A DNA stretch of 64,000 nt. Source: Centroscyllium fabricii (Eukaryota). The notes under the pieces were generated by a model. It did no database searches. It saw only the letters and a list, made by a program, of their open reading frames with translations, and was not told where the DNA came from. The stretch spans positions 300,948,001 to 301,012,000 of the forward strand of contig JBNRSN020000004.1 of assembly GCA_051313645.2 (NCBI GenBank), read 5' to 3'. A program made the position numbers and the translations under genes. Of this stretch, positions 32,801 through 64,000 are shown piece after piece (within the stretch, counting starts at the first letter, position 1; the number at the start of each line of letters is the position of its first letter).

Positions 32801-33085
32801 GCGACTGATTTAAAGGTGAGCGGGGGCCCACGGGAGCGGCTGATTTAAAGGTGAGCAGGGGCTCACGGGAGAGGCTGATTTAAAGGTGAGCGGGGGCCCA
32901 CGGGAGAGGCTGATTTAAAGGTGAGCAGGGGCCCACGGGAGAGGCTGATTTAAAGGTGAGCGGGGGCCTACGGGAGCGGCTGATTTAAAGGTGAGCTGGG
33001 GCCCACGGGAGAGGCTGATTTAAAGGTGAGCAGGGGCCCACGGGAGCGGCTGATTTAAAGGTGAGCAGGGGGCCACGGGAGCGGC
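32801..33085 (+). repeat. 35-bp tandem repeat x8
   Basis: gcggctgatttaaaggtgagcgggggcccacggga units at 35-bp spacing. Confidence 0.95.
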
Positions 33086-41700: not shown

Positions 41701-42951
41701 CCCACCTCCTGGCACAAGTACGTCTTTGGTTTGGTCCATGGGCTCTCCCACCCGGGCATGCGAGCTTCTCAGAAGCTCATGTCTGCCAAATTTGTCTGGC
41801 CAGGCCTACATAAAGATGTGCGGAACTAGACTAACACCTGCCAGGACTGCCAACTCGCTAAGGTCCATCAGCACACTAAGGCTCCGCTGCAAATATTTCC
41901 GGTGCCCGAGCGATGGTTCGATCATGTTCATGTTGACTTGGTTGGCTCCTTGCCCCCATCACAGGGTTTCACCCATCTCCTTACCATAGTGGACCGCACT
42001 ACCAGGTGGCCGGAGGTCGTACCCCTTACTTCCACCACTTCGGCGGATGTGGCACGCGCTTTTATTTTTTCATGGGTGGCCTGGTTTGAGGTCCCGTCGG
42101 ACATGACCTCCGACAGGGGCCCACAGTTTACCTCCCAGCTGTGGAGCGAAATCACCACTGGCCTAGGGACGCAGCTGCACCGCACGACTGCTTATCATCC
42201 GCAGGCAAACGGTATTTGCGAGCGGTTCCACCGTGCCCTCAAGGCCTCACTTCGTGCCAGCCTGGTCGACGCCAACTGGTTGGACAGGCTCCCTTGGGTC
42301 CTTCTGGGATTGCTCGCCACCCCTAAGGACGACCTCGGCATGTCTTCCGCCGAACTCGTGTTTGGACAACCTTTGCGCATTCCAGGAGAGCTCCCCTCCG
42401 TCACCGAGAATTGGTCAGCCGGCAAGCAGCTCGCTTGGCACAACGACGCTGCACATCGTTTCCTTCCTGTGCCCACCTCTCGGCAAGGGGCCCGCTCGTC
42501 CCATGTGCCCACTGAGCTCCGCCGGGCATAATTTGTTTTTGTGCGTCATGACGCCCATAGAACCCCTTTACAGGCACCTTATACAGGCCCTTTCAGGGTG
42601 CTAGAGGCCAGTGACAAGTCTTTTCTCCTCGCCGTTGGGGGCCAACAGGACTGCGTTTCCATTGACCGGCTTAAGCCGGCCCATTTGGACCCTGTTCCGC
42701 CTGAACAGGGTTCCCGGGTCATGCCTCAGGAGCGTTTCTTTGTCCCCGTCGTGCCCCCAGCGGATCCTGCGTTAATTAGACCCTCGTGTATGGCTCCACC
42801 TCCTTGCTCTCCGGTCTTGCCCCCGACTGCTGCGGAATATCCGCCCTCCAGTCCTGTTCACAGATCGCCGCTAGCGCCCCCTGCACCAGCGGGCTATCGC
42901 ACTCGCAGCGGTCGCCTCATCATGCCTCCTCGGAGGTTGACCCATCATGTC
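38752..42951 (+). mobile_element. Ty3/Gypsy element of CsRn1/Kabuki-like type; 5' LTR 38752-39037; 3' end displaced by the nested insertion
   Basis: LTR TGT...ACA with AATAAA; PBS TGGTGAC (tRNA-Trp-like); gag LPAFW..WFLQTEAQF and CHCC motif CYYH-X9-CRLPC; FLCDTGA; RT; RNase H; IN (TSDRGPQF, GPF). Confidence 0.85.
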
Positions 42952-42954
42952 TGA
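39100..42954 (+). pseudogene. gag-pol of the CsRn1-like element (several frameshifts and stops)
   Basis: ORFs 39166-39354, 39402-39827, 39523-40737, 40802-41128, 41065-41829, 41902-42531, 42541-42954. Confidence 0.85.
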
Positions 42955-43824
42955 CACGGTTCCCCAGGATATCTGGACCCACTTGAAGAGACCACATGGC
43001 AGGTAAGTGTTCTAAGTTGCACTTTACTTGAGAAGACAAGAGGAGGCTCAATAGCCACTGTTTACACGGTACATGAAAACACAAAGCAAAATAACAGAGA
43101 GACAATGCTCAAATTAAACATAGCACATAAGCCAAAAGTACTAACAAGCAGAAATGTGTCCATGAGTTCAAGACTAAGCACTGAGTGCTAGAGAGACCGG
43201 GTTTAAATACTTTAGACAACGAGATCTCGAATGAGGTTCAAGTGGTGACAGGTTTCTTTGGGAGGTGATGTATTCTGCTGCCACCTGTCTTCGGGGATGG
43301 CTCATGAAGGATGTCATGGGCCCTAATCCAGGACCGCTCCTCTGGACCATAACCCTCCCAGTCGACTAGGTATTGGAGGCTGCCTCTCACTCTGCGACAA
43401 TCCAGAAGCCGCCGCACTGTGTAGACAAGTTGCCCTTCGATCAACCTGGGTGGCGGAGGACAGCGAGAGGAGGGAGACAGGGGACAAGTATGAAAAGGCT
43501 TCAACAATGAGACATGAAAAGTGGGACAGACTCGCATTGACTTGGGCAATGTGAGTCTGTATGTTACCACATTGGTGCGTCGAGCCACCTTGAAAGGACT
43601 GATGAACCTGGGTGCCAGCTTCCGTGAGTCAACCCGCAGAGGAATGTCCTTGGTTGAGAGCCACACTCTCTGGCCGATGCGGTATGGCCTGATATGTCGT
43701 GGTTGCCTGTTAGCTGCTCACTGCTGTAGTCTGGAGCTCAGTGCTAGGGTGGCTCGGGCTATCCTCCACACTCTCTGGATGTTGCACTGCAACGGGGCCA
43801 CAATGTGCGAGCTTGGAAGGATAG

Positions 43825-44416
43825 TGTGAGCTATTGGGGCGGTCTGTGGTGGATGGGCGATATGTGGCCACTAGAGGGAGTCAAAGTCCCCATTTCTCTC
43901 TACCCAATTTAGGTAAATCCACCACACCTGAAGTTAATCTTTCCCTTTAGCTCAGCAGTTAAAAAGGGAGCTGGAACAGTCCTAATTCTCTCTTGATGGG
44001 AGGCTCTCTTTAGGGGAGAGTCTCCTAGTGGGAGGCGAGCCCCGAGGGGCTCTCGCCTCTGGTTGGAAGTCTCTTACAGGAGAGTTGGAAGCTTGTTGAG
44101 CCTGTTGACAGAGCCAGATTCCAGGACCTCCGCCAGCAGCTGTTCGATGACCAAAACCACCAAGGGAAGGCCTGAGGGCTGGAGTAGAGGGTAAAGTAAA
44201 CCTCGAGCTTATGACTTTGGGCGGATGTGTGTAAAGGACTGATTGATTTCAAACCTTGTGAGAAGACGAAGGACTCTGTAAGACGGGGGAATTGGGCCCC
44301 GATGTTTGAATAAACCACAGCCAAGGGCTGCTTTCAATAGACAAACGTGTGTTGTGCACATGTCCTCCGACCCCGCAACGTCATTCCCACTCTGACTCGA
44401 GAACGGGGTTGTCACA
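43825..44416 (+). mobile_element. Solo LTR inserted in the sushi-type element
   Basis: TGTGA...TCACA termini, AATAAA near 44309, flanks ATAG/ATGG; host frame PETI|LPSS rejoins on removal. Confidence 0.72.
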
Positions 44417-47098
44417 ATGGTCTCAGGGGGTCTGTCCGTCAGAGAGGAATCACACTGGCGAGAGAGAGCATCAGCCTTCTGATTCTTAGAACCAGGTCTG
44501 TAAGACAGTAAAGTCAAATCTACTAAAACATAGTGCCCACCTGGCTTGACGAGCATTCAGGCGCTTGGCTTCTCGGATGAACAGAAGATTTTTCTGGTCG
44601 GTCCAAATAACAAAGGGATGAACTGCACCTTCCAGCCAGTGTCTCCACTCTTCTAGTGCTAATTTAATAGCTAGGAGCTCCCGATTTGCTACATCATAAT
44701 TCATTTCAGCAGGGGAGAGTTTCTTAGAGAAAAAAGCACAGGGGTGCAGCCGTCCATCCTTCTGAGCGACCTGGGAAAAGATGGCCCCTACCCTTATAGC
44801 TGATGCATCTACCTCTACCACAAAGGGGCGATCAGTGTCTGGATGAACTAGGATGGGGGCAGAAGACAATTGTCTCTTGAGCTCATCAAAAGCCTTCTGA
44901 GCAGCAGCAGTCCATTTTATGTGCTCGGGAGAGCCTCGGGTAAGAGCAGTGAGAGGGGTTGCAATGGAGCTAAATTTCCTAATGAATTTCCGGTAGAAGC
45001 AAAACCCAAAAAGCGTTGTACCTGTTTCAGAGTGGTTGCTGTGGCCACGCCAGGACTGCCGTGACCTTCCCTTGGTCCATCTGAACTCCCGATGGTGTCA
45101 TGATATAACCCAGGAATTAAGTGCTGGAGGTGTGGAAATCACATTTCTCCAACTTAGAAGGTGTTCATTAAGTCTCTGGAGGACCATCCTGACATGTCGC
45201 ACGTGTTCTTCCTGGCTCTTAGAGAAGATAAGGATATCATCCAGGTACACAAAGACGAAGTGGTTAAGCATGTTCCTTAGCACATCATTAACAAAACTCT
45301 GAAACACAGCTGGGGCATTTGCTAGACCAAAGGGCATGACCAAGTGTTCATAATGACCACTAGAGGTGTTAAAAGCAGTCTTCCATTCATCCCCCTCCCT
45401 TATCCTGATCACATTGTAGGCATTGTGCAGGTCTAACTTTGTAAAAATGGTGGCCTTACGCACTGATTCCAGGACTGATGACACAAGTGGCAGAGGATAC
45501 CTGTTCTTGACTGTTACCTTGTTTAATCCTCGGTAATCGATGCAAGGACGTAGCCCACCATCCTTCTTTTCCAAAAAGAAGAAGCCAGCTCCAGCAGGGG
45601 AAGTGGACTGTCGAATGAAGCCATTCTTCAATGCATCCTGAATATACTCGTCCATAGCTGCAGATTCAGGAACCGAGAGAGAAAACAGTCTCCCTCTTGG
45701 GGGCATTGTCCCTGGAAGGAGGTTAATGGCACAGTCAGAAGGACGGTGAGGAGGTAGGACTGTGGCACGTATTTTATCAAAAACTTCAACCAAGTCATGG
45801 TATTCTTGGGGTAACTTAGATAGCAATTCGGAGGGCTCTTGAGAACTGACTGTGGTGCCCTGAGTGACAGTGGTGACCGTGGACACATTCAAGGTGTCGG
45901 CACAACAGGACTTGAGACAAGGGGGACTCCAGGCAAGGAGAGAAGCTGATACCCAGGAGAACTGGGGATTGTGTTGGGCTAGCCAAGCATAACCTAGGAT
46001 GAGGGGATTGACAAGGGACTCAAGTACATAAAAGGTTATATATTCCTTGTGGTTCTGTTCAGCAGTTAACAGCAACGGGGTAGTTTGGAATGAAATCTTG
46101 CCTGAGCCAACAGGGTGACCATCAATAGCTTGTACCTTTAATTTTGATTTGCATCTGATCAGGGGTATGGCTAAACATTTAGCTAAAAAAAATCCAGAAA
46201 ATTACCTGCCGCCCCAGAATCCACAAATGCCCCCAGGTGGTGACAATGTGCCCCCCAGGACAGAGATACAGGCAACAAGAGACATGAGTGCCGGTGTGGT
46301 CAGAAGAGTGCTCCAGTAGTCAAGGTCTTCCCATCCCTGGACGACTCTGCCCTTTTTCCCGAAAGCTCAGGGCAGTGAGAGCGGAAGTGGCCAGTCTTCC
46401 CACAGTAGAAGCACCTCCGCTCTTCCATCCTTTGGTCCCTCTCCTCACGGGAGAGTCTAGTGCGGCTCACCCGCATCGGTTCCTCACCTTGGACTGAGGA
46501 AGACCTTAATGGAGAGAGGTCTGGGGTTGAGGGAGGAAAGGCAGATTCTCTTGGCCTGGCCCGCTCCCTGCTCCTACCCCTTATACGGTTGTCCATTTGA
46601 ATGGAAAGGGTAATGAGCGACTCTAGGTCGTCTCCCCAGTCCCTGCACACCAGTTCATCTTTTACCCTCTCAGATAGTCCATGATGGAATGCAGCAATCA
46701 AGGACTCGGTGTTCCACTTGCTCTCCATTGCCAGAGTGCGGAATTCCAGAGCAAACTCAGCGACAGAGCGAGTTCCCTGGTGTAGATCGAACAGTTGTCT
46801 GGCTGCTGAACATTCTGTGACTGGGTGATCGAACACCTGTCTCATTTCTTGGCTGAACAATGTAAACTGTGCAATGTCAAGTGTCTGTAGCTCCCATCGA
46901 GTCAAGGCCCATGCAAGTGCCCTGCCCAACAGCAGTGAAATTACATAAGCCACCTTGGCACGATCAGTACTGAAGGAAGACGGTTGCAACTCAAACACAA
47001 GAGACCATTGGGTGAGAAAACATTTGCAAAGTCCTGGGTCTCCGTCATACCTGAGTGGCACTGGCATTTGGCGCTCTCGAGCTTGAGGAGGGGTAGAT

Positions 47099-47447
47099 CG
47101 GTTCAAATCCAGCCTCGGGTACTATCTGTGTGGAGTTTGCACATTCTCCCCGTGTCTGCGTGGGTTTCCTCCGGGTGCTCCGGTTTCCTCCCACAGTCCA
47201 AAGATGTGCGGGTTAGGTTGATTGGCCAGGATAAATTGACCCTTAGTGTTAGGGGGATTGAATATGTGGGGTTACGGGGATAGGGTGGGATATGTGTCGA
47301 TGGAGGCTCGATAGGGATCGAGGGATATGGCGAGAGGGCAGGGGCTGGATACTGGGTGTGGATGATCAGCCATGATCTCACTGAATGGCGGAGCAGGCTC
47401 GAAGGGCCGAACGGCCTACTCCTGCTCCTAGTTTCTATGTTCCTATG
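47099..47447 (+). mobile_element. 5'-truncated HE1-like V-SINE inside sushi gag
   Basis: Starts at B box gggttcaaatcc; near-identical to 15727-16075. Confidence 0.88.
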
Positions 47448-47611
47448 ATGAATCAGGTTGTGGGCGAGGCTGAAGCTGCTGCAAGGTATCCAGCACCTGG
47501 TGCACAGACTGTGAAAGTTGTTCCAGTAGCTGTTGGTGTTGTCCTAACATGGCTCCCTGACTTGAAACAGCTGATCGCAATTTCTGTGTCTCTTCTGGGT
47601 CCATGTTAATA

Positions 47612-47622
47612 GCTTAGTCTTG
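47612..47622 (-). promoter_or_regulatory. Self-priming PBS of the sushi-type element
   Basis: GCTTAGTCTTG is the perfect reverse complement of CAAGACTAAGC in the LTR (47836-47846); no TGG tRNA PBS present. Confidence 0.75.
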
Positions 47623-47972
47623 CTGACACGGTTCCCCAGGATATCTGGACCTACTTGAAGAGACCACACGGCAGGTAAGTGTTCTAAGTTGGACTTTACT
47701 CGAGAAAAGAGGAGGCTCAATAGCCACTGTTTACACGGTACATGAAAACACAAAGCAAAATAACAGAGACAATGATCAAACTAAACATAGCACATAAGCC
47801 AAAAGTACTAACAAGCAGAAGTGTGTCCATGAGTTCAAGACTAAGCACTGAGTGCTAGAGAGACAGGGTTTAAGTACTCTAGACAACAAGTCCCCGAATG
47901 AGGTTCAATCTTTTGATTGATCTTAATCTGTTTAACTGTAAATCAATAAAACTTTAAATGAAACTTAACAAA

Positions 47973-49504
47973 TCAAATTAAAATTTGGTTTGCCGGGGTG
48001 ACGATGCACTCCAGTCCCCGCGGCGCCCACCGGTCACGAAAAGCCTCAAGCGTACCGGCGGACACCGCGTGCTCCATCTCCAGGGCCACCCGGGCGCGAA
48101 CGTGGCCGCGAAAGAGAGGCAGGCAATCCGGCTGGACCACCCCCTCGACGGCCCGCTGCCTGGAACAATAAATGGATCTTTTGGCAAGTCCCAGGAGCAG
48201 ACCGACGAGGAGATCCTCCAACCTGCCCGCTCCCCTCCGCACCGGATGGCCGTAGATCAGGAGCGTGGGACTGAAGTGCAACCAAAACATGAGGAGCAGC
48301 CCCTTCAAATATTGATAGAGGGGCTGCAACCTCCCACATTCATAATAAACATGGAACACGGACTCCTCCAGGCCGCAGAAATGACAGGTGGCCTGGGAGT
48401 CCGTGAACCTACTTAAAACTTTGTTGCACGGGGCTACTCCGTGCAACACCCTCCAGGCCAAGTCCCCAATAGAACACGGGAAGACTCCCGTGTAGAGAGC
48501 CCCCCATTGGGGACCTCCACCTCCGCCGGATGGCAAAATGGCACGCCAGGGCGTGTCCGGACGGCAGGCGAAGATGACAAAGTGGAGAGTGTGCAGGAGC
48601 AGCCCGTACAGGAAACGCCTCCGTGCGGTGTCAAAAGGCACGGAGGGCATTTCACCGAGACGGCTCAAGTTGTGAGGCGCCGGTTCCCGAGAGGGGTTTC
48701 GGGGCCGGGCGCCGATGAGGAATTCCGTCCGAACGGGGGTCAGCTCGGACGGGAGCACCCCACTTCTTTGAGCCGCCTCAATTCGCATCGTGTAGCCAAG
48801 GCCCAACGCCACTTTCAGCGACTCGATGGCTTTGACCGCGAGCCGGACGTCACCATGACCCAGGCGCTGCGCCAGTTCCGCTGGCGCCATCCAGCCCGCT
48901 CCTCCGCCATCGAGCAGGTCCCTGACTATAGTCACCTTGCCAGGCACAGCTCTATTCTCCGCCAGCCACCCGAACCCTCGGTCGTGGAGGTGCGGATTCC
49001 TGAGCAGCGGCTCTCGCAGAAGAGCCGCCACTCCTGACGGGAGAGAGGTGCGCCTGGAGGCGACGCTGTTCCAAACCCAGAGCAGTTCCTGGTAAAAGAC
49101 AGGCAGCTCCCGAAGGCTGGCATGTGTACCACCCACTTTGACAAACAGGAGCTGCGTGTCGTAGTTCAGGCCGTGCAGCTGGCGGAAGAAATATGTCGCC
49201 AGCGCACACCATCTAGGAGGATCCTCGACGTACAGGTATCTCTGCAGCGTCTGAAGATGGAAAGTCGCCGCCTGGGTGCGGAGGCACACCAGCGCCTGAC
49301 CGCCCTCCCTAAGCGGGAGACACAGAACCGCGGCAGAGACCCAGTGCTTCCTTTTGTCCCAGAAGAAGTCGATGAGCTTCTTCTGTATCCTGGCGACAAA
49401 CGCAGGGGGAGGGATCAAAGTAACCAACCGGTACCACAACATGGCGGCCACCAGCTGGTTTATGACTAGCGCTCGACCCCTGTAGGACAACACTCGGAGC
49501 AGTC
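47973..49504 (-). CDS. Tx1 ORF2 C-terminal part (zf-RVT), separated by the nested LTR element
   Basis: LSYRGRALVIN, IDFFW, DLAWRVLHG, CHFCGLEESVFHVYYEC; open frame. Confidence 0.88.
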
Positions 49505-52500
49505 TGTAACCTTCAATTATGTCCACGGAGTCGTGTAGTAGATTTGAACAATCAGGCTTTTATTGACTACAGTAAGATTGCACACCAGCAAGCTGACTGT
49601 CCCCTAGAACGACATGGGGGATGGGGGCAGTCACTTATATACCTCCTCCAGCGGGGGAGGAGTCGTGGGCGGAGCCAGGTATGTTCCAGGTATCACAGTG
49701 GAATGCATTACAGGTATGGGTTACATGGTGATTAGCTATATACAGTGATATACATGTTTATCACATTCACCCCTTCTTTAAGAACGAAACTACAGCGGGG
49801 TGAAAAACTAACAATTACAAAGGTGATCGGAAAAAAATAATATTACAAACGCAGTTCTTATGATTACAAGTTTAATCTATCAGGCGGTTTCGTTGTCCGC
49901 GTTGATCTTCGCACCGCTGGTGGTGCCTGTGGTGTTCGTGGTCGTGGAGCGGCTGGTTGTGTCGGTTGCTCCATTGATGCCGGTCGACTAGTGGTGGTTG
50001 TTGAATTATTTCTGTGTGGCGGTGGTGCCCTTATTCTGACAGCAGGGGGCGCGTTCTCTCCTTCGTCCTCTGACTCTAGGGGGCGCACGCTGTGGATCTA
50101 AGCTTGGGGCGCGGTCATGCTGCTCGCAGGTGCCTTGTGAACATACTGGGGTACTGGGCCCATGTGTTGGGGCGGGTACTTCGGCTTCGGCGGCATGGGG
50201 CCTCTCGGGAGCTCGGGCTGCCTGGCGGGGCTGGGTTTTGGGACTCCTGCTGGGGCTAGGTCCTTTATGGACACGGTGTCCTCCCTCCCATCGGGGTACG
50301 CTATGTAAGCATACTGGGGATTGGCGTGCAGGAGGTGGACCCGTTCGACTAGGGGATCTGCCTTGTGTCCCCTCACATGCTTCCGAAGGAGGACCGGTCC
50401 CGGAGATAGTAGCCACGATGGTAGCGAGGTCCCGGAAGCCGACTTCCTAGGGAAGGCAAAAAGTCATTCGTGAGGGGTGGCATTGGTGGCAGTACACAGG
50501 AGGGACCGAATAGAGTGGAGTGCTTCAGGGAGAACGTCCTGCCATCGGGTGACTGGGAGGTCTTTAGACCGTAGGGCTAACTGGATGGCTTTCCAGACCG
50601 TGGCGTTCTCTCTCTCTACCTGTCCGTTCCCCCGGGGGTTGTAGCTGGTAGTCCTGCTAGTCGCGATGCCTTTCGCTAGCAGAAACTGACGCAGCTCGTC
50701 GCTCATAAAAGAGGCCCCCCGGTCACTATGGATATAGTTGGGGTACCCGAACAGGGAGAAGATGCTATTAAGGGCTTTGATGACGGTGGCGGAGGTCATG
50801 TCCTGGCAGGGAATAGCGAAGGGGAAGCGGGAGTACTCATCTATAACGTTAAGGAAGTACACATTCCTATTAGATGATGGAAGGGGCCCTTTAAAATCGA
50901 CACTGAGTCGTTCAAAGGGGCGAGTGGCCTTGATCAAGTGCGCCCGGTCTGGCCGGTAGAAGTGCGGCTTGCACTCCGCACAGACCTGGCAGTTGCTGGT
51001 CATGGTCTTGACCTCCTCGATGGAGTAGGGGAGGTTGCGGGACTTCACAAAGTGAACCAACCTGGTGACCCCCGGGTGGCAGAGGTCATTGTGAAGGGTT
51101 TGGAGACGGTCAGCCTGTGCGCTGGCACAGGTACCGCGGGATAGGGCATCTGGGGGTTCGTTAAATATCCCGGGCCGGTACAAGATATCATAATTGAACG
51201 CAGATAGTTCAATTCTCCACCTTAATATCTTGTCGTTCTTTATTTTACCCCGTTCCTTGTTGTTGAACATGAATGCGACTGATCGTTGGTCAGTCAACAG
51301 GGTAAAACGTTTGCCGGCCAGGTAGTGCTTCCAGTGCCGCACTGCTTCAACAATGGCCTGGGCCTCCTTTTCGACTGAGGAATGGCGGGTTTCGGGGCCT
51401 TGGAGAGTACGTGAAAAGAAGGCCACGGGTCTGCCCGCCTGGTTAAGGGTGGCGGCCAGGGCAAAGTCCGATGCATCGCTCTCTACCTGAAATGGGACGG
51501 ACTCATCCACAGCGTGCATCGTGGTTTTGGCAATGTCGTTTTTAATTCTGCAGAATGCCGAGTTGGCTTCTGCAGAAAGTGGGAAAGAGGTCGATTTAAG
51601 TAGTGGGCGAGCTTTGTCCGCATAATTGGGGACCCACTGGGCATAATAAGCAAAAAATCCCAAACACCGTTTAAGGGCTTTGGGGGAGTGGGGGAGGGGA
51701 AGCTCCATGAGGGGGCGCATGCGGTCCGGGTCTGGACCGATGACTCCATTCTCCACCACGCTGCCGAGGATGGCCAGGCGGGTGGTGCTAAACACACATT
51801 TCTCCTTATTATATGTTAGGTTCAGGGTTTTGGCCGTGTGGAGACATTTTTGGAGATTGGCGTTATGGTCCTGCTGATCATGGCCGCAGATGGTCACATT
51901 ATCAAGGTACGGGAATGTCGCTCGCAGCCCGTACCGATCAACCATTCGGTCCATCTCCCTCTGGAAGACCGAGACCCCGTTCGTGACGCCAAACGGAACC
52001 CTAAGGAAGTGGTAGAGGCGGCCGTCAGCCTCAAAGGCTGTATAAGGACGGTCCTCTGGGCGGATGGGAAGCTGGTGATAAGCCGATTTTAAATCAATTT
52101 TGGAGTACACTTTAAATTGGGCGATTTGGTTCACCATGTCCGCTATCCGGGGGAGGGGGTAGGCATCTAGTTGGGTGAACCGGTTTATGGTCTGGCTGTA
52201 ATCCACCACCATCCTATTCTTCTCTCCGGTTTTTACTACCACTACCTGTGCTCTCCAGGGGCTGTTGCTGGCCTCTATGACCCCCTCTTTTAGGAGGCGC
52301 TGCACCTCAGATTTTATAAATACCATGTCCCCAGCACTGTAGCGCCTACTTTTGGTGGCGACGGGCTTACAGTCTGGGGTGAGGTTGGCAAAGAGAGATG
52401 GAGGGGCAACCTTAAGGGTCGAGAGGCCACAGGTAGTGTGCTGGGGGTACCGCCTTGAGCTGCGGTTTCTGACCGTGAGTGAGGGAAGGGGTCCGCCGAA

Positions 52501-54088
52501 TGCCATAGTAACGCTCTGAAGGTGGCACTGGAAGTCCAGTCCCAGGAGTAGGGGGGCGCAGAGCTGCGGCAGCACGTAAAAACTAAAATCATTAAACATT
52601 GCGCCCTGTACTTTAAGCGTTACAATACAGCGCCCGGTGACGTCAGCGGATTCTGACTTGGACGCCATAGATATTCTCTGGCGCGCAGGGATTACTTTAA
52701 GGGAGAGGCGCTTTACGGTATTTTGGTGAACAAAACTTACTGTGCTCCCACTGTCGAACAGGCACACCACCTCTTCACCGTTGACTTCCACCGGCATCAT
52801 CGATTTCTCCAGTGGTTGAATCTTCCTCTGGTCTAGGCTCATAGATGCTAGCACAGGGTCCTCCGAGTTATCTTGATCCGGAGAGTAGTCCTCCAAGTCT
52901 GCTCCCCAAGATGGCTGCCGCCATGTGTTGGGCTGTGGAGGCTGGGTCCAAGATGGCCGCTGTTGCTGCGGCTGCCACGAGGGCTGCTGAGTGGGGGATG
53001 GGTGAGCCCAATATGGCTGCTCCCCTGTTCCACACGCAGCGCTGCCCAGTTTAGATTTAAAGCTAGTGTTTTTACAGACCTTTGAATAATGTCCCTTTTT
53101 GTCGCATTTTGAGCAGGTCGCTTCTCTAGCTGGGCAGCTGCGTCTTGAGTGTTGAGGTTGTCCACAAAAGTAACATTTAGCTTTAGCGTGGGCAGCTGTG
53201 AGTAGTTCTTCTGCCGGTCGTTGCGCCAGCGCTGTCCAAGTTTGCGGGGCTGGGCCCGCATAATTACTTGAATATGATGATAAGTCCGTTGAAGCGCTAT
53301 CCAGCGCGTGCCCCAAGTCTGTGGTCGCCTGTAAGTCCTGGCCGTTCTGCTCCAGCAGTCTCTGCCTGGCATAGTCCGATTTTAGACCAGTTACATAGGC
53401 GTCCCTGATGAGGCTCTCCATATGAACTTGAGCCGTTTGCGCTCTGCAGTCACAGTCCCGTGCCAGCGTTCTGAGGGCTCTTAGGAACTGCACACTCGAT
53501 TCATTATTTTGTTGCTTTCTGGTAGCAAGTATATGTCTCGCGTGGACTATGTTCGGTGCCCGCTTATATTCCGCCTCGAGGAGCCTGATGGCCTCTTGGA
53601 ACGATGGGGCGTCCAGTGTCATCGAGTACACTTGAGGGCCCACCCGGGCGTTGAAGAGTCGCCGTTTTTGCTCCTCGGTCACTATGACCGCCGCGTTGGC
53701 TCTGATGTACCCTTCGAGCACGTTTCGCCAGTGCGAGAAGGCGTTTGCTGCTCCTGAAGATCGGGGATCAACTTCGAACACTGCTGGTTTAAGCATTGTG
53801 GTATCCATTTTCAGTAGTCAATAAAATTGTAACCTTCAATTACGTCCACGGAGTCGTGTAGTAGATTAGAACAATCAGGCTTTTATTGACTACAGTAAGA
53901 TTGCACACCAGCAAGCTGACTGTCCCCTAGAATGACATGGGGGATGGGGGCAGTCACTTATATACCTCCTCCAGCGGGGGAGGAGTCGTGGGCGGAGCCA
54001 GGTATGTTCCAGGTATCACAGTGGAATGCATTACAGGTATGGGTTACATGGTGATTAGCTATATACAGTGATATACATGTTTATCACA
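49505..54088 (-). mobile_element. Young Mag-like Gypsy element; 261-bp LTRs (49505-49765, 53828-54088); 5-bp TSD CAGTC
   Basis: LTRs differ at about 3 positions; empty site visible in Tx1 copy 2 (gagcagtcctgtcc, about 61323); PPT AAGAAGGGGTGAA. Confidence 0.95.
49864..53808 (-). CDS. Single gag-pol ORF (two CCHC knuckles, PR, RT, RNase H, IN) with two in-frame stops at 50464 and 50098
   Basis: The 1114-aa ORF continues in the same frame through ORFs 50098-50376 and 49864-50088; LFDSGS, YLDN, ESDAS, HSDRG. Confidence 0.92.
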
Positions 54089-56458
54089 CAGTCCTGTCCA
54101 GCGCCCCAGGCGAGCGGTGACTTTGGCCTCCAGCTCTTGCCAGTTCGCCGGCCAGGCTTCCTCGGCTGGGCTGAGGTAGACTCCCAAGTAGAGGAGGTGC
54201 GTGGTGCTCCAGGCGAATGGCCTGAACTCCTCCGGCAGGGAGTCCACCCGCCACTGACCCACCAGGAGTCCGGAACATTTCTCCCAGTTGATCCTGGCGG
54301 AGGATGCGTCCGAGTAAATCTGCTGGCATTCCCGCATCCTCCGCAGGTCAGCGGGATCCGTGACCATGAGGAGCACGTCATCGGCGTAAGCCGAGAGGAC
54401 GACCTCCACGCCCGGCCCTTGCAGAGCCAGTCCCGTCAACCTCTTCCGCAAGAGGCGCAGGAAAGGCTCCACGCAAACGGCATATAACTGACCGGACATG
54501 GGGCATCCCTGACGCACCCCCCTCCCAAAGCGAAGGGGCGCCATCAAAGACCCGTTAACTTTTATCAGACACTCTGCGGCAGCATACAAAAGTCGGATCC
54601 GGGCGACGAAATGCGTCCCGAACCCGAATGCGCGCAGAGTCCCGAAAAGGTACTCGTGATCCACCCTGTCGATCACCTTCTCCTGATCCAGGGAAAGGAA
54701 GGCGACCGACATACCAGCCCTCTGGGAATGGTGGAGCAGGTCCCGGACCAGATGGACGTTGTCGTGGATCGACCGGCCCGGGACCGTGTAGGACTGGTCG
54801 GGGTGGATCATGTGGGCCAGCACGGTGCCAAGGCGGACAGACATGGCCCTGGCAAAAATTTTGTAATCCGTGCTGAGGAGGGAGACCGGGCGCCAGTTTT
54901 TAAGGAGGTGGAGATCGCCCTTCTTTGGCAGCAGGACAATGACGGCCCTGCGCCAAGAGAGGGGCATCTCCCCGGTCGCCAGACTTTCCCCCAGGACCCG
55001 CTGGTAGTCGCCCCCCAAGACGTCCCAGAACGCCCTGTGGAACTCCACGGTCAGCCCGTCCAGCCCCGGGGACTTTCCCCTCGAGAGCTGGCCGAGGGCG
55101 CCGGTCAGCTCCGCCAGACTTAGCGGAGCGTCCAATTGTTCGGCGCCCTCCGGACTGACCTTCGGCAGGTCCTCCCACAAAATTCTACACGCATCCTCGC
55201 TGGACGGATCCGGAGAGAACAGAGCCCCGTAAAAGGACCGGGTCTCCGCGCTGATCCCCTCCGGATCCGAGACCAGAGATCCGTTGTCGGCCAGCAGCGC
55301 CAAAAGATGCTTACGGACCCCTCGCCTTTTTTCCAGCGAGTAGAAGAAGGGGGAGCCGCGGTCCAGATCCCGCAGGAACTGGATGCGCGACCTCACGAAC
55401 GCGCCTCGGGACCCGACGAGCTGCAGGTCCTTCAGCGTGCCCTTCTTTTCTTCGAACCCTGTCCGCAGGGCCGGGTCCCCGATGGCCTGACCGAGGCGGG
55501 ACTCCAGGTCGAGCACTTCCTTCTCCAATCGCCCGACCTGAGCCTTCCGCCCCTTGGTCGACCCCCTTGCGTACTCCTGACAGAAGAGACGGACGTGAGC
55601 CTTGCCCACGTCCCACCATAGCCTCAAGGAGGGGAAGCCCCCCTGCTTCCTTCTCCAGTCGGCCCAGAACCGACGGAACGAATCCCGGAATCGCGCGTCC
55701 TCCAGCAGCAGGTTGTTAAAATGCCAGTACGCGGATCCCCTCCGCGCGCGCAACGGAGCGAGCTCCGTCCACACCAGGTGGTGGTCCGTGCACGGCACCG
55801 GCCGCATGGAAGCCGCCCGAACGCAGGAGACGTACGCCCGAGAAATGTAGAGGCGGTCGATTCGGGAGCCTCCTCCTCCAGGCCTCACGTGAGTGAAGGC
55901 GCTCGAGTCGGGATGGAGATTCCGCCAGACGTCCACCAAGTCGAAGGACCCGACCAGGTTCCTCAACTTCTCTATCGCCGCCGGGCTGCGCGGGCGACCC
56001 GCACGGTCCCTCGCCTCGAGGGTACAATTGAAATCTCCCCCGAGGATGATGCACTCGTCGACGTCGACAGAGCCCAGAAGAGCGGACACTTCTTCAAAGA
56101 AGCGCACTTGCGCACCGATCTGAGGGGCGTACACGTTCACAAGATGGAGTGGCACGCCCCCGTGACGAACAGTGACCTGGAGCAAGCGGCCCGGCATGTG
56201 CTCCTTGACCCTCAAGATCTCCGGCTGAAAATGTGGGGCCAGCAAGATAGCCACCCCGCTGGAAATGTTGGAGAGGTGACTCATGTTGACCCCTCCTTGC
56301 CACTCCAGGAGCCACGTGGCGTCGTCTCCCGGAACGGTGTGGGTTTCTTGCAGGAAGCACACCGCATACTTCCCGTCCCGGAGGACCGATAAATTGTTAA
56401 ATCTACGGCGTGCCTCCCTGCTGCCGTTGATGTTGAGGCTCGCTATGGTTATCTTCAT
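54089..56458 (-). CDS. Tx1 ORF2 N-terminal part (APE endonuclease plus RT)
   Basis: SLNING, FLQETH, GGDFN, SRIDR, TDH, NWRPVSLL, GVRQGCP, YADD; open frame. Confidence 0.92.
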
Positions 56459-56483: not shown

Positions 56484-58652
56484 CTAACGGGGGGAAAGAG
56501 CGCAGTCCGTGGACAGACGCCACTCCTTCCGCAGCCCAGTGAGGAACTTCTTGAGCTGGCGCAGCTCGGGCTTTTTAACGCCCTTGTCCGCGGCCATGGC
56601 TTTAATGGCGGCGCGGACGGACAAAATGAGCGGCGCCAGCTCCAACCACCTGTCGAGGGCCAGACGGACCAGATTGTGGCGACCGAGGCGCGCGGCCTCA
56701 AAGTCCCGGAGCTCCGCCACGGGGATGAGGGGAGACTCGGCGATGGGCACGAGGTCGTCCATCGCCTCGTCGGCGACGGACTCCAGATCATCGTCCGCGC
56801 CCAGCTCTGAGTCCCCGTCCTCCTCCGGGAGGCCGCCACCGGCGGCCGATCCGCCAGCCGCGCAGGACGCGACTAACGGCTCGGCCACACCATCCGACCC
56901 TACCTCGGTCCCGATCCCACCCCCAGGATCGGTGGCAGAGGAGTCCTCCCTGGGCTCCACCAGGGGTGCCGGGCCAGAGGGAGGCGGCAGTTCGGGGCTC
57001 CCGTCCACCTCAGGCGCCGTAACGTACGGAGAGACGGGGAAGATGTCAAATACCATCTCCTCCAGTACGTCCGACGCCGATGTTAAGGGCGGAGTGAAGG
57101 AGCCGTCACCTTCCCCGCCACCAGCCACTGACCCAGCTTGTGGGGTATCCTGGTTAAAAACCTCGACCAGGTCGAACAGTCCCAGGGTACAATCGGGTTC
57201 ACTAGGGGCGAGGTCTATCTCTTCGACCTCGCCCACCCTTGACCCCAGGACGCCCGACCCGTCGAGGTCAGATTGTTCCCCTTGAGGGTTTTGGGGTTCT
57301 GGAGGTTGTTCCACGTCCCCCCCCACAGGCAGGGCCACATCCCCATCCCCGGGAGGTGTAAGGTCGCACGCCCCTTACAGAGGCACGGGCGGGACAGACT
57401 CAACCGCCCCACTCTCCTGCAAGACAGGCGACCCCCGCCCGTCATGAACGACGATGGCGATTTTGGGAGGGGGCGCGGCGCACGACGACTCCGCTCCCTC
57501 AGAGGGACCGTCCTCTTGATCACGGCCCCCCTCCTCACCCTGGGAGTCGGAGTCGTGCCTCCGTTTTATCCTGAGGGGACCCTGAGGGGGGGTGACCTCC
57601 ATATCATCCAAGGCCACCCCCTCCTCCGTTCCCCCCAGCTGAATGGGTGTTTCGGGCCCCTTGGATCCGAGCCCGGCCGCAGGTATTAACTTTTCTGTTG
57701 TGGCAGTGGCGGCCGCAGGCTCAGACTCGGGGCCCTCCCCGCTCCCACGTGGACCCACCAGACCCTGGATGTACTCTGGCATTGGGTCTGGCAGGTCCAG
57801 CAGTTGTGTGTCCCCTACGAGGGGACCCACCTTGCGGTTTTTGTTTTTATTTTTATTCCGCGCCTTCTTTCCGACCGGACGCGTTTCCTCCCACCCGCCG
57901 GAGGCCGTGATATCATTGGCCTCCGACGACACCCGCGCACCCGACACGCAAGACGCGCGGACAGACTCTGAGGGAGGAGCGGCGGCGGCGCCAGCTTCGG
58001 CCGCACTATTTGTTTTGGCGGCCTTGGAGGCGGGGCAGTTCCTCCTGATATGCCCCACCTCCTTACAGGCATGGCACCGCACGCCGTCCGTCGTCCAGAA
58101 GACGCGGTAGGCGGTCCCCTTGTACAGCACGGGGAATGCGCCGTCGGTGTCCTCCTCCCGCGCCAGCTGCATAAACAGCTGACGCCGGAAGGAGAAGACG
58201 TGGCGAAGGCTGGCCTCCCGGAACCCGAGCGGGATGGGCGTTATCTCCGACCTCACCTCCCCAAGTTGGCGTAGGTGGGGGAGGAGGAGCTCACCGGGAA
58301 TATAGGGTGGGATGTTGGAAAGTACGACCCTCTGCCCGGCGGCCTCTAGAGGGTCCACCGGCAGGAAGGTGCCACCCACGGTGAGCCCCTGTTCGACGGC
58401 CAGGGCCGCCGCCCGCTCGGAGTTCAAGAAGAACACAGCCTTCCCGTACATTTTAGAGGCCGCGACGATGGCTGAGGGGCCGACAACCCCAGCCATGGCC
58501 TTCACGCATGCCTCTATTGTCATGGTTGGGTGAGCGTAGCTCTTCACCCCCAGTTTCCTGGTTAGCAACCGGAATGGTGATGGGGCATCAGGGGCAGCCG
58601 TGGTCTTGGCAGTGGATGCCACGGCTGCGTAGGATTTTGATGTCCCCGCCAC
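56484..58652 (-). CDS. Tx1 ORF1 (RRM-like plus CCHC knuckle, long low-complexity tail), one in-frame stop at 57375
   Basis: KSYAAVA, ASKMYGKAVFFL, VVLSNIPPYI, CHACKEVGHIRRNC; ORFs 57375-58652 and 56484-57338 share a frame. Confidence 0.85.
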
Positions 58653-59654
58653 CGGCGAAGATATTGTCGCCCTGCTACCAGAGGGGGGGTTTTGGAGCCA
58701 CGCTCACCCCAAGTCACAGGCCTAAAGATGGTGAATGGCCTCAGGTAGGTTTTTGTCTTTTCCTCTTGAGCAGAGGGGGTGATTAGATAAAGACACACCC
58801 CTCCTCTTGATGACAGATGGGGGAGGGGCCTTCTCCCCTCTGCTCAATTGGCAATGAAAATGAAAGATGAAAAATGGTTAATGAGGTGCCTCTAGGGAGA
58901 GAGGCAGAGAAGGCAAAGAGAGAGAGAGAGGGGTGGTGGGAAGGAGGGAGACCACAAGGGTAGGGTCACCACTCAGGATGGATGGGTGGGTGGGTGTTGA
59001 CAGGCGGGGGTGCACTCTCTGATGGAAAAATACAAAGTCTGTTGATGTTGATGGTGGTCTTCTGGTGGGGGGAGAAGATGTCTTCACCTGGGATAGCTGG
59101 AGATGCCCAGGCTCAGTCCTCACCAGGTCTTTAACGATGTTTAATTGGTTGATGACTTCGCCTAGGCAGCTCCAGCCGTCCCAGGTCAGGCAATAGAAGG
59201 GGTGTTTTTAGTGGTGTGTGTGGCCTAGTTTTAACAAAAGCCACACACACAGACACACACCCCTTGATGGTCCGGCCTTCTGGTCTTCTTTTCTCCCCCC
59301 CACCTACAAATACAAAGTCTTTGGGAGAGTGCACCCAAAAACAACACCCACCTTCAGATGGTTATTCTCCCTCCTTCCGAAAAGTTGGTGGTGATGATTT
59401 TCTTCACCCCTCTCTTCCTCTCCCGAAATGGAGGCCAATCTGGGAGGCAGTGATGGGAAGGCCTCCCTGATGTTTTCTTGATGGATTCTTGGCCTCTCTT
59501 TCCTCTCCTCTGTCCTCTCTCCAGAAGCACCTCTGCAGCAGATGTTGTGGATGGTTGACTGATGGTGATGGTCACCCTACTGCTCTACTGCTCAAAAGAA
59601 ACAAACAAACAACACAACACCACAAAGAAGCACTCACAGCAGTAGAGTGGCCAG

Positions 59655-59731
59655 GAGTTCAAGACTAAGCACTGAGTGCTAGAGAGACAGGGTTTAAGTA
59701 CTCTAGACAACAAGTCCCCGAATGAGGTTCA
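59655..59731. repeat. 77-bp exact duplicate of sushi LTR segment 47831-47907
   Basis: gagttcaagactaagcactgagtgctagagagacagggtttaagtactctagacaacaagtccccgaatgaggttca is identical at both sites. Confidence 0.95.
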
Positions 59732-61872
59732 CTCTTTTGGTTGGTACTTGAACGGTTTATCTGTAAATTAGCAAAAGTTTAACTGAATCTTAACAAATTA
59801 AATTAAAATTTGGTTGGCCGGGGTGACGATGCACTCCAGTCCCCGCGGCGCCCACCGGTCGCGAAAAGCCTCAAGCGTACCGGCGGACACCGCGTGCTCC
59901 ATCTCCAGGGCCACCCGGGCGCGAACGTGGCCGCGAAAGAGAGGCAGTCAATCCGGCTGGACGACCCCCTCGACGGCCCGCTGCCTGGAACAATAAATGG
60001 ATCTTTTGGCAAGTCCCAGGAGCAGACCGACGAGGAGATCCTCCAACCTGCCCGCTCCCCTCCGCACCGGATGGCCGTAGATCAGGAGCGTGGGACTGAA
60101 GTGCAACCAAAACATGAGGAGCAGCCCCTTCAAATATTGATAGAGGGGCTGCAACCTCCCACATTCATAATAAACATGGAACACGGACTCCTCCAGGCCG
60201 CAGAAATGACAGGTGGCCTGGGAGTCCGTGAACCTACTTAAAACTTTGTTGCACGGGGCTACTCCATGCAACACCCTCCAGGCCAAGTCCCCAATAGAAC
60301 ACGGGAAGACTCCCGCGTAGAGAGCCCCCCCATTGGGGACCTCCACCTCCGCCGGATGGCAAAATGGCACGCCAGGGCGTGACCGGACGGCAGGCGAAGA
60401 TGACAAAGTGGAGAGTGTGCAGGAGCAGCCCGTACAGGAAACGCCTCCGTGCGGTGTCAAAAGGCACGGAGGGCATTTCACTGAGATGGCTCAAGTTGTG
60501 AGGCGCCGGTTCCCGAGAGGGGTTTCGGGGCCGGGCGCCGATGAGGAATTCCGTCCGAACGGGGGTCAGCTCGGACGGGAGCACCCCACTTCTTTGAGCC
60601 GCCTCAATTCTCATGGTGTAGCCAAGGCCCAACGCCACTTTCAGCGACTCGATGGCTTTGACCGCGAGCCAGACGTCACCATGACCCAGGCACTGCGCCA
60701 GTTCCGCTGGCGCCATCCAGCCCGCTCCTCCGCCATCGAGCAGGTCCCTGACTATAGTCACCTTGCCAGGCACAGCTCTGTTCTCCGCCAGCCACCCGAA
60801 CCCTCGGTCGTGGAGGTGCGGATTCCTGAGCAGCAGCTCTCGCAGAAGAGCCGCCACTCCTGACGGGAGAGAGGTGCGCCTGGAGGCGACGCTGTTCCAA
60901 ACCCAGAGCAGTTCCTGGTAAAAGACAGGCAGCTCCCGAAGGCTGGCACGTGTACCACCCACTTTGACAAACAGGAGCTGCGTGTCGTAGTTCAGGCCGT
61001 GCAGCTGGCGGAAGAAATACGTCGCCAGCGCACACCATCTAGGAGAATCCTCGACGTACAGGTATCTCTGCAGCGTCTGAAGACGGAAAGTCGCCGCCTG
61101 GGTGCGGAGGCACACCAGCGCCTGACCGCCCTCCCTAAGCGGGAGACAAAGAACTGCGGCAGAGACCCAGTGCTTCCTTTTGTCCCAGAAGAAGTCGATG
61201 AGCTTCTTCTGTATCCTGGCGACAAACGCAGGGGGAGGGATCAAAGTGACCAACCGGTACCACAACATGTCGGCCACCAGCTGGTTTATGACTAGCGCTC
61301 GACCCCTGTAGGACAACACTCAGAGCAGTCCTGTCCAGCGCCCTAGCCGAGCGGTGACTTTGTCCTCCAGCTCTTGCCAGTTCGCCGGCCAGGCTTCCTC
61401 GGCTGGGCTAAGGTAGACTCCCAAGTAGAGGAGGTGCGTTGTGCTCCAGGCGAAAGGCCTGAACTCCTCCGGCAGGGGGTCCACCCGCCACTGACCCACC
61501 AGGAGTCCGGAATATTTCTCCCAGTTGATCCTGGCGGAGGATGCGTCCGAGTAAATCTGCTGGCATTCCCGCATCCTCCGCAGGTCAGCGGGATCCGTGA
61601 CCATGAGGAGCACATCATCGGCGTAAGCCGAGAGGACGACCTCCACGCCCGGCCCTTGCAGAGCCAGTCCCGTCAACCTCTTCCGCAAGAGGCGCAGGAA
61701 AGGCTCCACGCAAATGGCATATAACTGACCGGACATGGGGCATCCCTGACGCACCCCCTCCCAAAGCGAAGGGGCGCCGTCAAAGACCCGTTAACTTTTA
61801 TCAGACACTCCGCGGCAGCGTACAAAATTCGGATCCGGGCGACGAAATGCGTCCCGAACCCGAATGCGCGCA
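59732..61872 (-). mobile_element. Tx1 copy 2 (3' part of ORF2), interrupted at 61873 by an LTR element
   Basis: High similarity to copy 1 ORF2 with small frameshifts; divergent 3' UTR. Confidence 0.92.
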
Positions 61873-62679
61873 TGTAACACAGTGTTTGGAGCAGTGCAGC
61901 AGGTGGGCTTTAGGACCCAACGGCATTTGTCCACCCCACTCGGCAACAATGTTGCAAACCTGGGGACATGGAGTGTTTGGCTGGAAGCTCCCAGCTGTTC
62001 AAATTCACGCGTATAGGTGCCAGTTGACAGTTGGTGGTTGGAATCTAAAAGAAAGAAGATCTCAGAGCCGAGGTGGTAGCTTCGCCCTCACTGCCATAGA
62101 TTTGATTGATAAAGAGCAGATCGCCACCGGGAAGAGGAGTGACACCGAAGAGTGAGCCACACCCGAGGTGGAGCAGATAAACGAAGAGAGAGAGAGAGAG
62201 AGAGACTTTTCTTTTCAGGCTCTTGATGCCCTCAGAATTGGTGCTTGACTGTTGAGGCGTCGAACCCCAGAGATAGAAAGGGAGGTGTGAGTACCGTGGG
62301 ACTGGGAGGGAATAGGGTCACTTGTTCAGTACCCCTTGCCAGTGGTTTCCAGGTATTTTTACCATGGCCATTGCCGTAAAGACTGTTTTGTCTAAGTCGC
62401 TATTCATAGCTCCTTAAAGGGAAATGTGTTTATCATTTTGTTAATACTGTAAATAGTTATCAAATCATCTCAACCTGTTGTAAATGTGAGTTATTTATCA
62501 CCAATTGTTTGATAAACTCTACAACCCTTTTCCCTACCTTGCTAAACTTGATTGATTACAGTACTGTTACATTTACCTATGGTGTTGTGTATTTCTTTCT
62601 GGGAAGGCAGCATTGAGTTAGACTTACTGGCGTAGACCACGATCTATTGCAAAATTCATTGAACCACGTAGGGGTTACA
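61873..62679 (+). repeat. 5' LTR of a Gypsy element with PNMA-like gag
   Basis: TGTAAC...GTTACA termini followed by tRNA-Pro-like PBS TGGGGGCTCGTTCCGGGAT (62683-62701). Confidence 0.85.
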
Positions 62680-62750
62680 TTTTGGGGGCTCGTTCCGGGA
62701 TATCGAGTGGTCTTTTGCCGGTGGGTCGGTCGTGTTGCCTGCTCAGAAAG

Positions 62751-64000
62751 ATGGATGCTGTGGAGGCTGCAGCGTGGTGCGAAGAGGCAAAGCTGGAGCC
62801 TCATCATGCCTTTTTGATATGTGGTGTTAATGAAGGAGACTCGGATGAGCTGGTACTAGGGGCTCTTAATGATGCTGACGAAGGGGAGGACTTTCAGATA
62901 GTTCAAAGTCAAGTGGACCCAAGTACCCAGACCCGAGTCATACTGGTTAAGACAGGGAGAGATGTGGAATACTTTCCTATGCCAGAAACGGTTGGGAGCG
63001 AAGGGAAAGCTGGTCCCTGGGTCGTTCAGCCCATTGTTAGAAAGAAAATAAAGAGAGAAGAAGATTTTGAAGCAAAATTGCTATGCTTCCTGGGGGGGGA
63101 AGGGAAAAGTGTTAAGGACCTTCAGGGACTATTTGAAACCCCAAGGGAAGATCCCAACCCTCACTTGGTCAGCGCGATAGGGTCGCTGGTTGAGAAGTGT
63201 GCTCAGGTGTCTTCTGAGGCACACGGATATAAGAAACTCCGTCCATTTTCGGGGGAAAGACCCACCCCTAGAGAGGAGGCGGAATATGAAGCCTGGGCAG
63301 AACAGACTTCGTCACTATTAGAAGAATGGCAGTGCAGTGACCAGATCAAGCGGCAAAGGATTGTGGAGAGTCTGAGAGGTCCTGCTACTGACATCCTGAG
63401 ATTTGAAAAAGTCCAAAATTCTTCAGCTACCTCGGCTGATTATATGAAGGCGTTAGAAACGGCTTTCGGAAACACAGAAACGAGTACAGATTTAATGGTC
63501 CGGCTTCGCAGCACTTTTCAAGGAGAGGGGGAAAAATTGTCCAGTTACATGCTGCGTATAGAGAAGCTGTTGCTCTGCCTGCTCCGTAAAAAGGGAATTG
63601 AAGTGGCAGAGCTAGATCGGTTTAGGATGGACCAGATTAGGCGAGGAGCACTGCTAGAAGATATAGTGGCTCTTCGTCTTAGGCTAATGTACAAGGTGTT
63701 GATCCCACCCTCTTTTACCGCATTGTTGAAAGAGGTCCGGGAGGAGGAGGATACATTACAGGCCCGAAGGGAAGTTAAGACTGTGGTGATGTCACAGCCA
63801 GTTGCTTCTTTGAGTGCCCAAGATCCTGAGAAGGAGAGGGATTCTGAGATGGCCGGCTTGAGGGCAGAGATGAAGGCTATGAGGGTCGAGATAGCCCAGG
63901 TCAGGAAGACACCGGGTTCGGCGAAGGGGGTCGACTCGGAAAGGAAGACCGAGGTGATGCCCAAGAAAGGGGAGAGACCGGGGGTCTTTTGCTATAACTG
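62751..64000 (+). CDS. PNMA-like Gypsy Gag, open to the window edge
   Basis: Manual translation MDAVEAAAWCEE...YKKLRPFSGERPTPREEAEYEAWAEQ...VESLRGPA...QGEGEKLSSY...GVFCYN (start of zinc knuckle). Confidence 0.85.
   Translation, partial: MDAVEAAAWCEEAKLEPHHAFLICGVNEGDSDELVLGALNDADEGEDFQIVQSQVDPSTQTRVILVKTGRDVEYFPMPETVGSEGKAGPWVVQPIVRKKIKREEDFEAKLLCFLGGEGKSVKDLQGLFETPREDPNPHLVSAIGSLVEKCAQVSSEAHGYKKLRPFSGERPTPREEAEYEAWAEQTSSLLEEWQCSDQIKRQRIVESLRGPATDILRFEKVQNSSATSADYMKALETAFGNTETSTDLMVRLRSTFQGEGEKLSSYMLRIEKLLLCLLRKKGIEVAELDRFRMDQIRRGALLEDIVALRLRLMYKVLIPPSFTALLKEVREEEDTLQARREVKTVVMSQPVASLSAQDPEKERDSEMAGLRAEMKAMRVEIAQVRKTPGSAKGVDSERKTEVMPKKGERPGVFCYN

Follow-up and report, generated by a model that had tools for sequence, protein, structure and literature searches.

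How does a LINE come to carry, directly in front of its own 5' end, the TATA-like box and predicted start site of an LTR retrotransposon, and does it make use of them? The question is raised by a 77-bp direct repeat in the window, which is the whole 64,000-nt stretch of DNA analysed here, where a LINE of the Tx1 clade (Tx1-A) is inserted into the 5' LTR of a host retrotransposon. We lean towards the answer that a Tx1L-type LINE targets one U3 site located 61 nt upstream of the start of a Tf1/sushi-type LTR and borrows the promoter of this LTR, a reading that we rate as slightly better than an even bet.

A 77-bp repeat around a Tx1 element in an LTR

Along the minus strand, the order of the elements is a second LINE copy (Tx1-B), the 77-mer, Tx1-A (59654-47908), a second 77-mer, the remaining part of the LTR, the primer-binding site, the genes of the host element and its 3' LTR. 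The upstream copy of the repeat (59655-59731, minus strand) consists of 61 nt of LTR U3 and 16 nt of R and reads in sense into Tx1-A, and the downstream copy (47831-47907, minus strand) is continuous with the remaining host 5' LTR. As claimed by an earlier, sequence-only reading of the locus, the two copies are identical (77/77, with the exact match ending at both borders) and differ at several positions (7/77) from a third copy in the host 3' LTR (43164-43240). Exact 12-, 15- and 20-mers of the repeat occur at three places only within the 64-kb window, and chance is excluded as the origin of the identity between the two copies. The direct repeat flanks a complete element and is present as a single copy in the empty site of the 3' LTR, as expected of a target site duplication.

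ORF2 of Tx1-A is split by a nested gypsy element into a 5' part with the APE endonuclease and RT domains (54089-56458, minus strand) and a 3' part (47973-49504, minus strand). The 5' part is 54% identical to Xenopus laevis Tx1L ORF2 (YTX2_XENLA, P0064) along 99% of the 796 N-terminal residues, and the 3' part is 42% identical to Tx1L residues 795-1291. These identities and the Pfam domains Exo_endo_phos and RVT_1 place the element in the Tx1 clade (Tx1L group), an assignment made without a tree. Protein matches at 69-70% identity are ray and shark proteins, which points to a cartilaginous fish. ORF1 (56484-58673, minus strand) encodes a candidate zinc knuckle that scores just under the cut-off (zf-CCHC, 20.6 bits vs 20.8) and has 23 relatives, those named being from sturgeon and turtles. 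The 3' tail (47908-47972, minus strand) joins the target at the insertion site, has no poly(A) run and contains none of the 11 types of poly(A)-signal hexamer tested. The nested gypsy element (49505-54088, minus strand) has 261-bp LTRs with 3 differing sites and a 5-bp duplication, and it sets a minimum age for Tx1-A because it lies inside ORF2. This gypsy element is young and has a 1117-aa open frame. Because ORF1 has no ATG at the position of the Met of its relatives and has an in-frame stop at 57375-57377, and because ORF2 is interrupted, this copy of Tx1-A is dead.

Tx1-B (59732-61872, minus strand) occupies the same site and adjoins the upstream duplicate. It is broken at 61873 by an LTR-like element, beyond which lies a PNMA-type gag (62622-64000). 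Tx1-A and Tx1-B differ at 23/1508 sites of ORF2 (1.5%). Their 3' tails (47908-47972 and 59732-59797) differ at 13/65 sites, against those 23/1508 in ORF2 (p=3e-10), and the Tx1 tail would appear to be either hypervariable or exchanged. The sole poly(A)-type hexamer of the Tx1-B tail is GATAAA. Insertion may be sequence-specific: 2/2 Tx1 copies in the window and one contig of the public run X1 end at the same site. The region from 39200 to 64000 is deeply nested, with a plus-strand gypsy element (pol, 39511-42954) directly before the host element that bears Tx1-A and Tx1-B. Elsewhere in the window, tandem repeats with periods of ~171 and 35 nt are found at 3136-4054 and 32800-33086, the former in the plus strand's longest ATG-free stretch, and a 778-aa open frame at 681-3017 with an RT followed by an ALKBH8_N-like domain comes from another LINE.

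The host element is of the Tf1/sushi type. Its interior (43241-47623, minus strand) encodes gag, RT, RNase H, an SH3 domain (SH3_Tf2-1, E=2e-19) and a truncated chromodomain (Chromo, E=2e-8, profile positions 1-42/53). The remainder of the 5' LTR (R-U5, 47624-47830, minus strand), with a poly(A)-type signal AGTAAA at 47700 (+147), is followed by a primer-binding site (47612-47622, minus strand) of the self-priming type, which marks the Tf1/sushi group (PMC6317226). The 11-mer GCTTAGTCTTG starts on the minus strand at 59670, 47846 and 43179 and is complementary at all 11 positions to CAAGACTAAGC, which is located just past the 5' LTR (47622-47612). The duplex energy of GCTTAGTCTTG with CAAGACTAAGC is -17.9 kcal/mol, and longer 5' ends give no gain. 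In Tf1, the primer is made of the first 11 nt of the RNA. If the self-primer is taken in the same way, +1 is predicted at 47846 in the host LTR and at 59670 in the upstream duplicate (self-primer, 59660-59670, minus strand). The repeat is thereby divided into its 61 nt of U3 and 16 nt of R, and Tx1-A is inserted 61 nt upstream of this +1. With +1 set by the self-primer complement, the TATA-like box TACTTAAA of both repeats (59693-59700 and 47869-47876, with minus-strand starts at 59700 and 47876) begins at -30. The corresponding box of the 3' LTR is TATTTAAA (43202-43209, minus-strand start at 43209); a TATA function is presumed for both forms, of which TACTTAAA is non-consensus. The sequence-only reading had described a Tx1 LINE and a self-priming LTR element, with a minus-strand TATA-like box followed 25-30 nt downstream by the self-primer; ORF2 identity, domain content and the exact 11-nt primer-binding site agree with this description. 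Its further claim that the duplicate places a TATA-like box and a predicted start in sense ahead of the Tx1 leader is correct as to the arrangement.

The LTR start consensus of sushi elements is TGTYANR (PMC3601003). Upstream of the junction there are two candidate LTR starts, one at a distance of 10 nt (43250) and the other at ~66 nt (43307), the latter after an apparent deletion at the chromodomain end. The empty target in the 3' LTR is contained in 42952-43241 (minus strand), with 43250 or 43307 as the probable upper limit of U3. No purine tract was found ahead of the insertion site in the 3' LTR. Because this tract is absent and the candidate starts are farther up, we infer that the Tx1 junction lies inside U3 and not at the 5' end of the LTR. 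Insertion exactly at the LTR 5' end is disfavoured by the absence of a purine tract there. The host chromodomain stops at profile position 42/53 and is followed by U3-like sequence without a purine tract (43241-43315), and a deletion at the end of the chromodomain is probable. A 37-codon hydrophobic upstream ORF (47717-47830, minus strand) begins at the first ATG of the LTR and is frameshifted in the 3' LTR; four ATGs precede gag in the leader of the host element. The heptamer CTTGAAC is present at the insertion site (43235-43242) and again close to the opposite end of the duplication (47832-47839, minus strand), and both places may therefore be endonuclease sites.

LTR-like head and ATG-free leader

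LTR likeness continues beyond the exact repeat. The first 30 nt of Tx1-A (59625-59654, minus strand) are a diverged, LTR-R-like head that matches the LTR continuation at 22/30 aligned nt. This alignment score is reached by 0/5000 shuffles (1/5000 when scored against the 3' LTR) and at none of the unrelated sites among 127,940 positions of the window (1/127,950 at 25 nt). Because the likeness extends past the 77-mer, the head of Tx1-A is probably LTR-derived and older than the present insertion, and would thus have two ages. The identity of the repeat stops exactly at the first ATG of the LTR transcript (+17), where the LINE has CTG.

The leader from the predicted +1 to the start position of ORF1 (58674-59670, minus strand, 997 nt) contains no ATG and lies within the minus strand's longest ATG-free stretch. 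Shuffles contain 12.2 +/- 2.7 ATGs, and 0/2000 of them give zero (over 971 nt). The loss of ATG is partly compositional, in that GAT (1 against 12) and ATA (1) are also rare and the leader is CATC-rich; once the ATC excess is allowed for, the chance of zero ATG is ~0.0006. The CpG observed/expected ratio of the leader is 0.12, and the adjacent ORFs are CpG-rich (0.85-0.90). No match to three TATA patterns was found in the leader, and a search for an HDV-like ribozyme gave five Rfam matches (E up to 1), all of which score far below the gathering threshold and include no ribozyme. The possibility that the Tx1 RNA primes itself was rejected, the best match to a primer-binding site in the Tx1 UTR being 8/11.

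The LTR-like relic, the end of identity at the first ATG, the ATG-free leader and the recurring junction described below favour the use of the LTR promoter by Tx1, although the ATG-free leader would also be compatible with an internal promoter from which transcription begins at the +1 of the element itself. Such a promoter is part of a fairly unlikely explanation, in which the long duplication is a one-off event, an old LTR-derived head having paired with the target by chance, and the family can do without the LTR promoter. Internal promoters are the rule among LINEs (PMC1636488), some Tx1 families have captured U1 or U2 heads (PMC4494074), and the TATA-like box is non-consensus in both copies, all of which speak for this explanation. 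However, the first 16 nt match the LTR exactly and the next 30 are ~25% diverged, as if +1 to +16 were renewed from the target in each cycle. A one-off event also leaves the junction to coincide with the first ATG, and the UTR has neither a CpG island nor a match to the three TATA patterns.

Other copies bear on the same alternative. Public runs were compared over 58900-60300, with contigs from 4/20 runs covering 15/128 joints, 12/30 joint fillings, 24/1,765 loose ends and 32/24,943 pieces; contig depths are not copy numbers. In run X5, a diverged 152-nt contig (15 other letters, 13 gaps) spans 59512-59669 and has the same 5' junction. It reaches 15 nt into the 77-bp repeat and ends inside R, and therefore it shows the leader and not the upstream U3. 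The end of this contig is one base from the predicted +1, which may be due to chance branching. In run X1, a contig of depth 56 connects 59550 with 59650 across undefined letters, the 28-letter side of the joint being unstated. Another X1 contig, of depth 33, links 59935 to 59720, with 3 other letters in between. We read the latter as the tail of one copy, followed by 12 nt of target and by ~200 nt of a copy that is truncated at its 5' end, with a duplication of about 12-15 nt at this one truncated copy. It follows from the X1 and X5 contigs that the LTR leader and the site recur and that short duplications accompany truncated copies. The explanation by a one-off event gains from these contigs in two ways, in that short duplication is known in the family and that the public contigs prove the R leader only, not the upstream U3. 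No second complete 77-bp duplication was found among the contigs listed (32/24,943 pieces, 15/128 joints).

The earlier proposal that the long duplication builds tandem arrays found no support in this comparison: tandem arrays need no long duplication, because the X1 contig holds only ~12 nt of target between copies. Among the pieces listed, one X12 contig of a related element continues into unlike sequence, and more distant relatives therefore need not share the LTR target. Contigs of runs X10 and X12 cover the Tx1 UTR and ORF2 but not 59558-59745, a gap that proves nothing. Of 161 metagenome stretches, one (L001) was confirmed by the C-terminus of ORF2 (33%, E 2e-6) and was rejected, its DNA resembling unrelated bacterial genes. 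Scans with ORF1 gave 0/11 candidates in viral contigs and 0/222 in GTDB genomes, and the 20-nt self-primer pattern had no match in viral contigs.

Origin of the repeat and a model of promoter renewal

It had been claimed that the duplicate was copied locally, and this is likely on the present comparison of the repeats and tails. The absence of differences between the repeats fits the minimum age given by the nested gypsy element (P=0.41 at 3/261) and does not fit the 9% distance to the 3' LTR (P=0.0006). Furthermore, 13/65 sites differ between the two Tx1 tails that adjoin the repeats, against 0/61 in the U3 parts (p=0.00013), which argues against repeats carried by the element and against a simple tandem duplication. 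One part of the picture does not agree with the claim. All 7 differences from the 3' LTR fall in U3, 7/61 there vs 7/224 elsewhere (Fisher p=0.014, in a comparison chosen post hoc), and this excess is unexplained by a purely local copy. Between 47847-47907 and 43180-43240, the 7 host-LTR differences are all confined to the first 43 nt, and four are packed into 7 nt; such clustering possibly reflects conversion or a recombinant host element.

The excess divergence of U3 but not R is accounted for by another, quite improbable explanation, in which the repeat is borne by the element as in HeT-A: the RNA would read through the tail into U3, priming would occur near +1 to +16, and a 61-nt core promoter would travel at the 3' end and drive the next copy of the array. 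The lack of a poly(A) signal in the Tx1-A tail and the single GATAAA in that of Tx1-B are in line with this explanation, as are CTTGAAC at both ends of the repeat and the precedent of HeT-A (PMC1636488). However, the tails next to the repeats are unlike at 13/65 sites although the U3 parts show no difference, and in the X1 contig the tail is followed by no more than 12 nt of target. Unequal crossing-over or gene conversion among Tx1-bearing LTRs, by which a unit of the 77-mer and Tx1 would have been made or homogenised, is very improbable. The region is densely repetitive and the ORF2 sequences of Tx1-A and Tx1-B are only 1.5% apart (23/1508), which speaks for recombination, but the tails differ by 20%, so that the two copies are no simple duplicate, and the LTR-like head and the junction at the first ATG are left unexplained. 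The sequence-only reading had also offered a chimeric-transcript junction as the origin of the duplicate. A template switch onto LTR RNA as the sole cause is rejected, because 61/77 nt of the repeat lie upstream of +1 and such a switch alone cannot supply them.

Borrowing of the LTR promoter can be put as a cycle of four steps; its geometry and sequence signatures are observed, and its biochemistry is inferred throughout. In the first step, the endonuclease would nick the target where the 77-mer begins, and the 3' tail of the LINE would be the starting point of reverse transcription, the basis being the site common to the two copies here and one contig elsewhere. In the second, the full-length RNA would have begun at the LTR +1 in the donor locus, and its cDNA would therefore end in 16 nt complementary to +1 to +16 of the target. 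In the third, modelled on R2Bm, the end of the cDNA would pair with the target top strand 62-77 nt beyond the nick, and resolution and fill-in would duplicate the intervening 61 nt of U3, giving 61+16=77. In the fourth, the TATA-like box and +1 face the LINE leader again, an observed geometry with a presumed promoter activity, and the cycle would thus repeat. The junction could not creep past +16, because +17 is the first ATG of the LTR, which the LINE has lost. Copies truncated at the 5' end, having no leader, would make ordinary short duplications. Either kind of insertion, full-length or truncated, would regenerate the site and so lead to tandem stacks. This cycle suggests a LINE without its own promoter, which would borrow one anew at each full-length insertion.

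The duplications of APE LINEs usually measure 10-20 bp (PMC6895275), and the melting of 60 or more bp in the model is therefore an assumption. The model is also weakened by the non-consensus TACTTAAA, by the divergence of U3 (p=0.014) and by the lack of a second complete 77-bp duplication among the contigs listed. If it holds, it would explain why a LINE targets a site just upstream of an LTR TATA box, and it would show a heritable, self-renewing promoter takeover between retroelements. The Tx1 family also provides a built-in test of the model, with ~77 bp expected at full-length copies and 10-20 bp at truncated ones from the same nick.

A more far-reaching form of the model is possible though doubtful. 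A Tx1 family with neither a promoter nor a terminator of its own would become a pseudo-LTR element at each full-length insertion, with a leader-programmed 77-bp duplication that rebuilds the TATA-like box and +1, the poly(A) site of the downstream LTR as its terminator, and a junction pinned by selection against the first ATG. If this is true, the RNA would be terminally redundant like that of an LTR element, and a route from LINE to LTR-like element would exist at the present day.

Comparison with known systems

Tx1L of Xenopus laevis, to which both parts of ORF2 are similar, also belongs to the Tx1 LINEs and inserts into another transposon (PMC4494074), but its target is the piggyBac-type DNA transposon Tx1D. 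A preference for LTR retrotransposons is known from crocodilian Tx1 families, namely Tx1-8_Crp, Tx1-4_AMi and Tx1-Mar/SINEU (Kojima 2015, PMC4494074). Tandem copies of SINEU-3 sandwich a target duplication, and SINEU-2B_Crp has a 42-nt target-like 5' extension, for which transcription from the flanking transposon has been proposed (PMC4494074). The duplications named for them are shorter than the one found here (~10 nt in SINEU-1 and 16 nt in SINEU-3), and no LTR insertion position, long duplication or regenerated TATA box or start site is named for the crocodilian elements in the parts of PMC4494074 drawn on here.

R2Bm is co-transcribed from the promoter of its target and has 27 nt of target at the 5' end of its RNA, and strand invasion has been proposed as the way in which the 5' target sequence joins (PMC6895275). 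However, R2Bm has an RLE enzyme, an rDNA target, a far upstream promoter, a 5' end made by a ribozyme and a 2-bp deletion (PMC6895275). In APE-type LINEs, the completion of the 5' end and the control of duplication length are poorly understood (PMC6895275). R9 of Adineta vaga is a site-specific LINE with a 126-bp duplication; it differs in its RLE enzyme and rDNA target, and no promoter role is named for it in the parts of the sources drawn on here (PMC6895275, PMC12203849). HeT-A of Drosophila resembles the present element in its tandem arrays, external transcription start and terminally redundant, LTR-like RNA, but its promoter resides in its own 3' UTR, in contrast to the target DNA of a foreign LTR here (PMC1636488).

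Tx1 elements that target LTRs, transcription from the target (R2) and duplications of very great length (R9) are thus each known, and their combination, as we read it from this locus, was not found in the literature searched. No report of a Tx1 element with a long duplication that rebuilds an LTR promoter was found there either; subscription papers, Repbase and the supplement of PMC4494074 may bear on this point. New in the present analysis, relative to the sequence-only reading, are the LTR-like 30-nt head, the end of identity at the first ATG, the ATG-free leader and the recurring LINE/LTR 5' junction.
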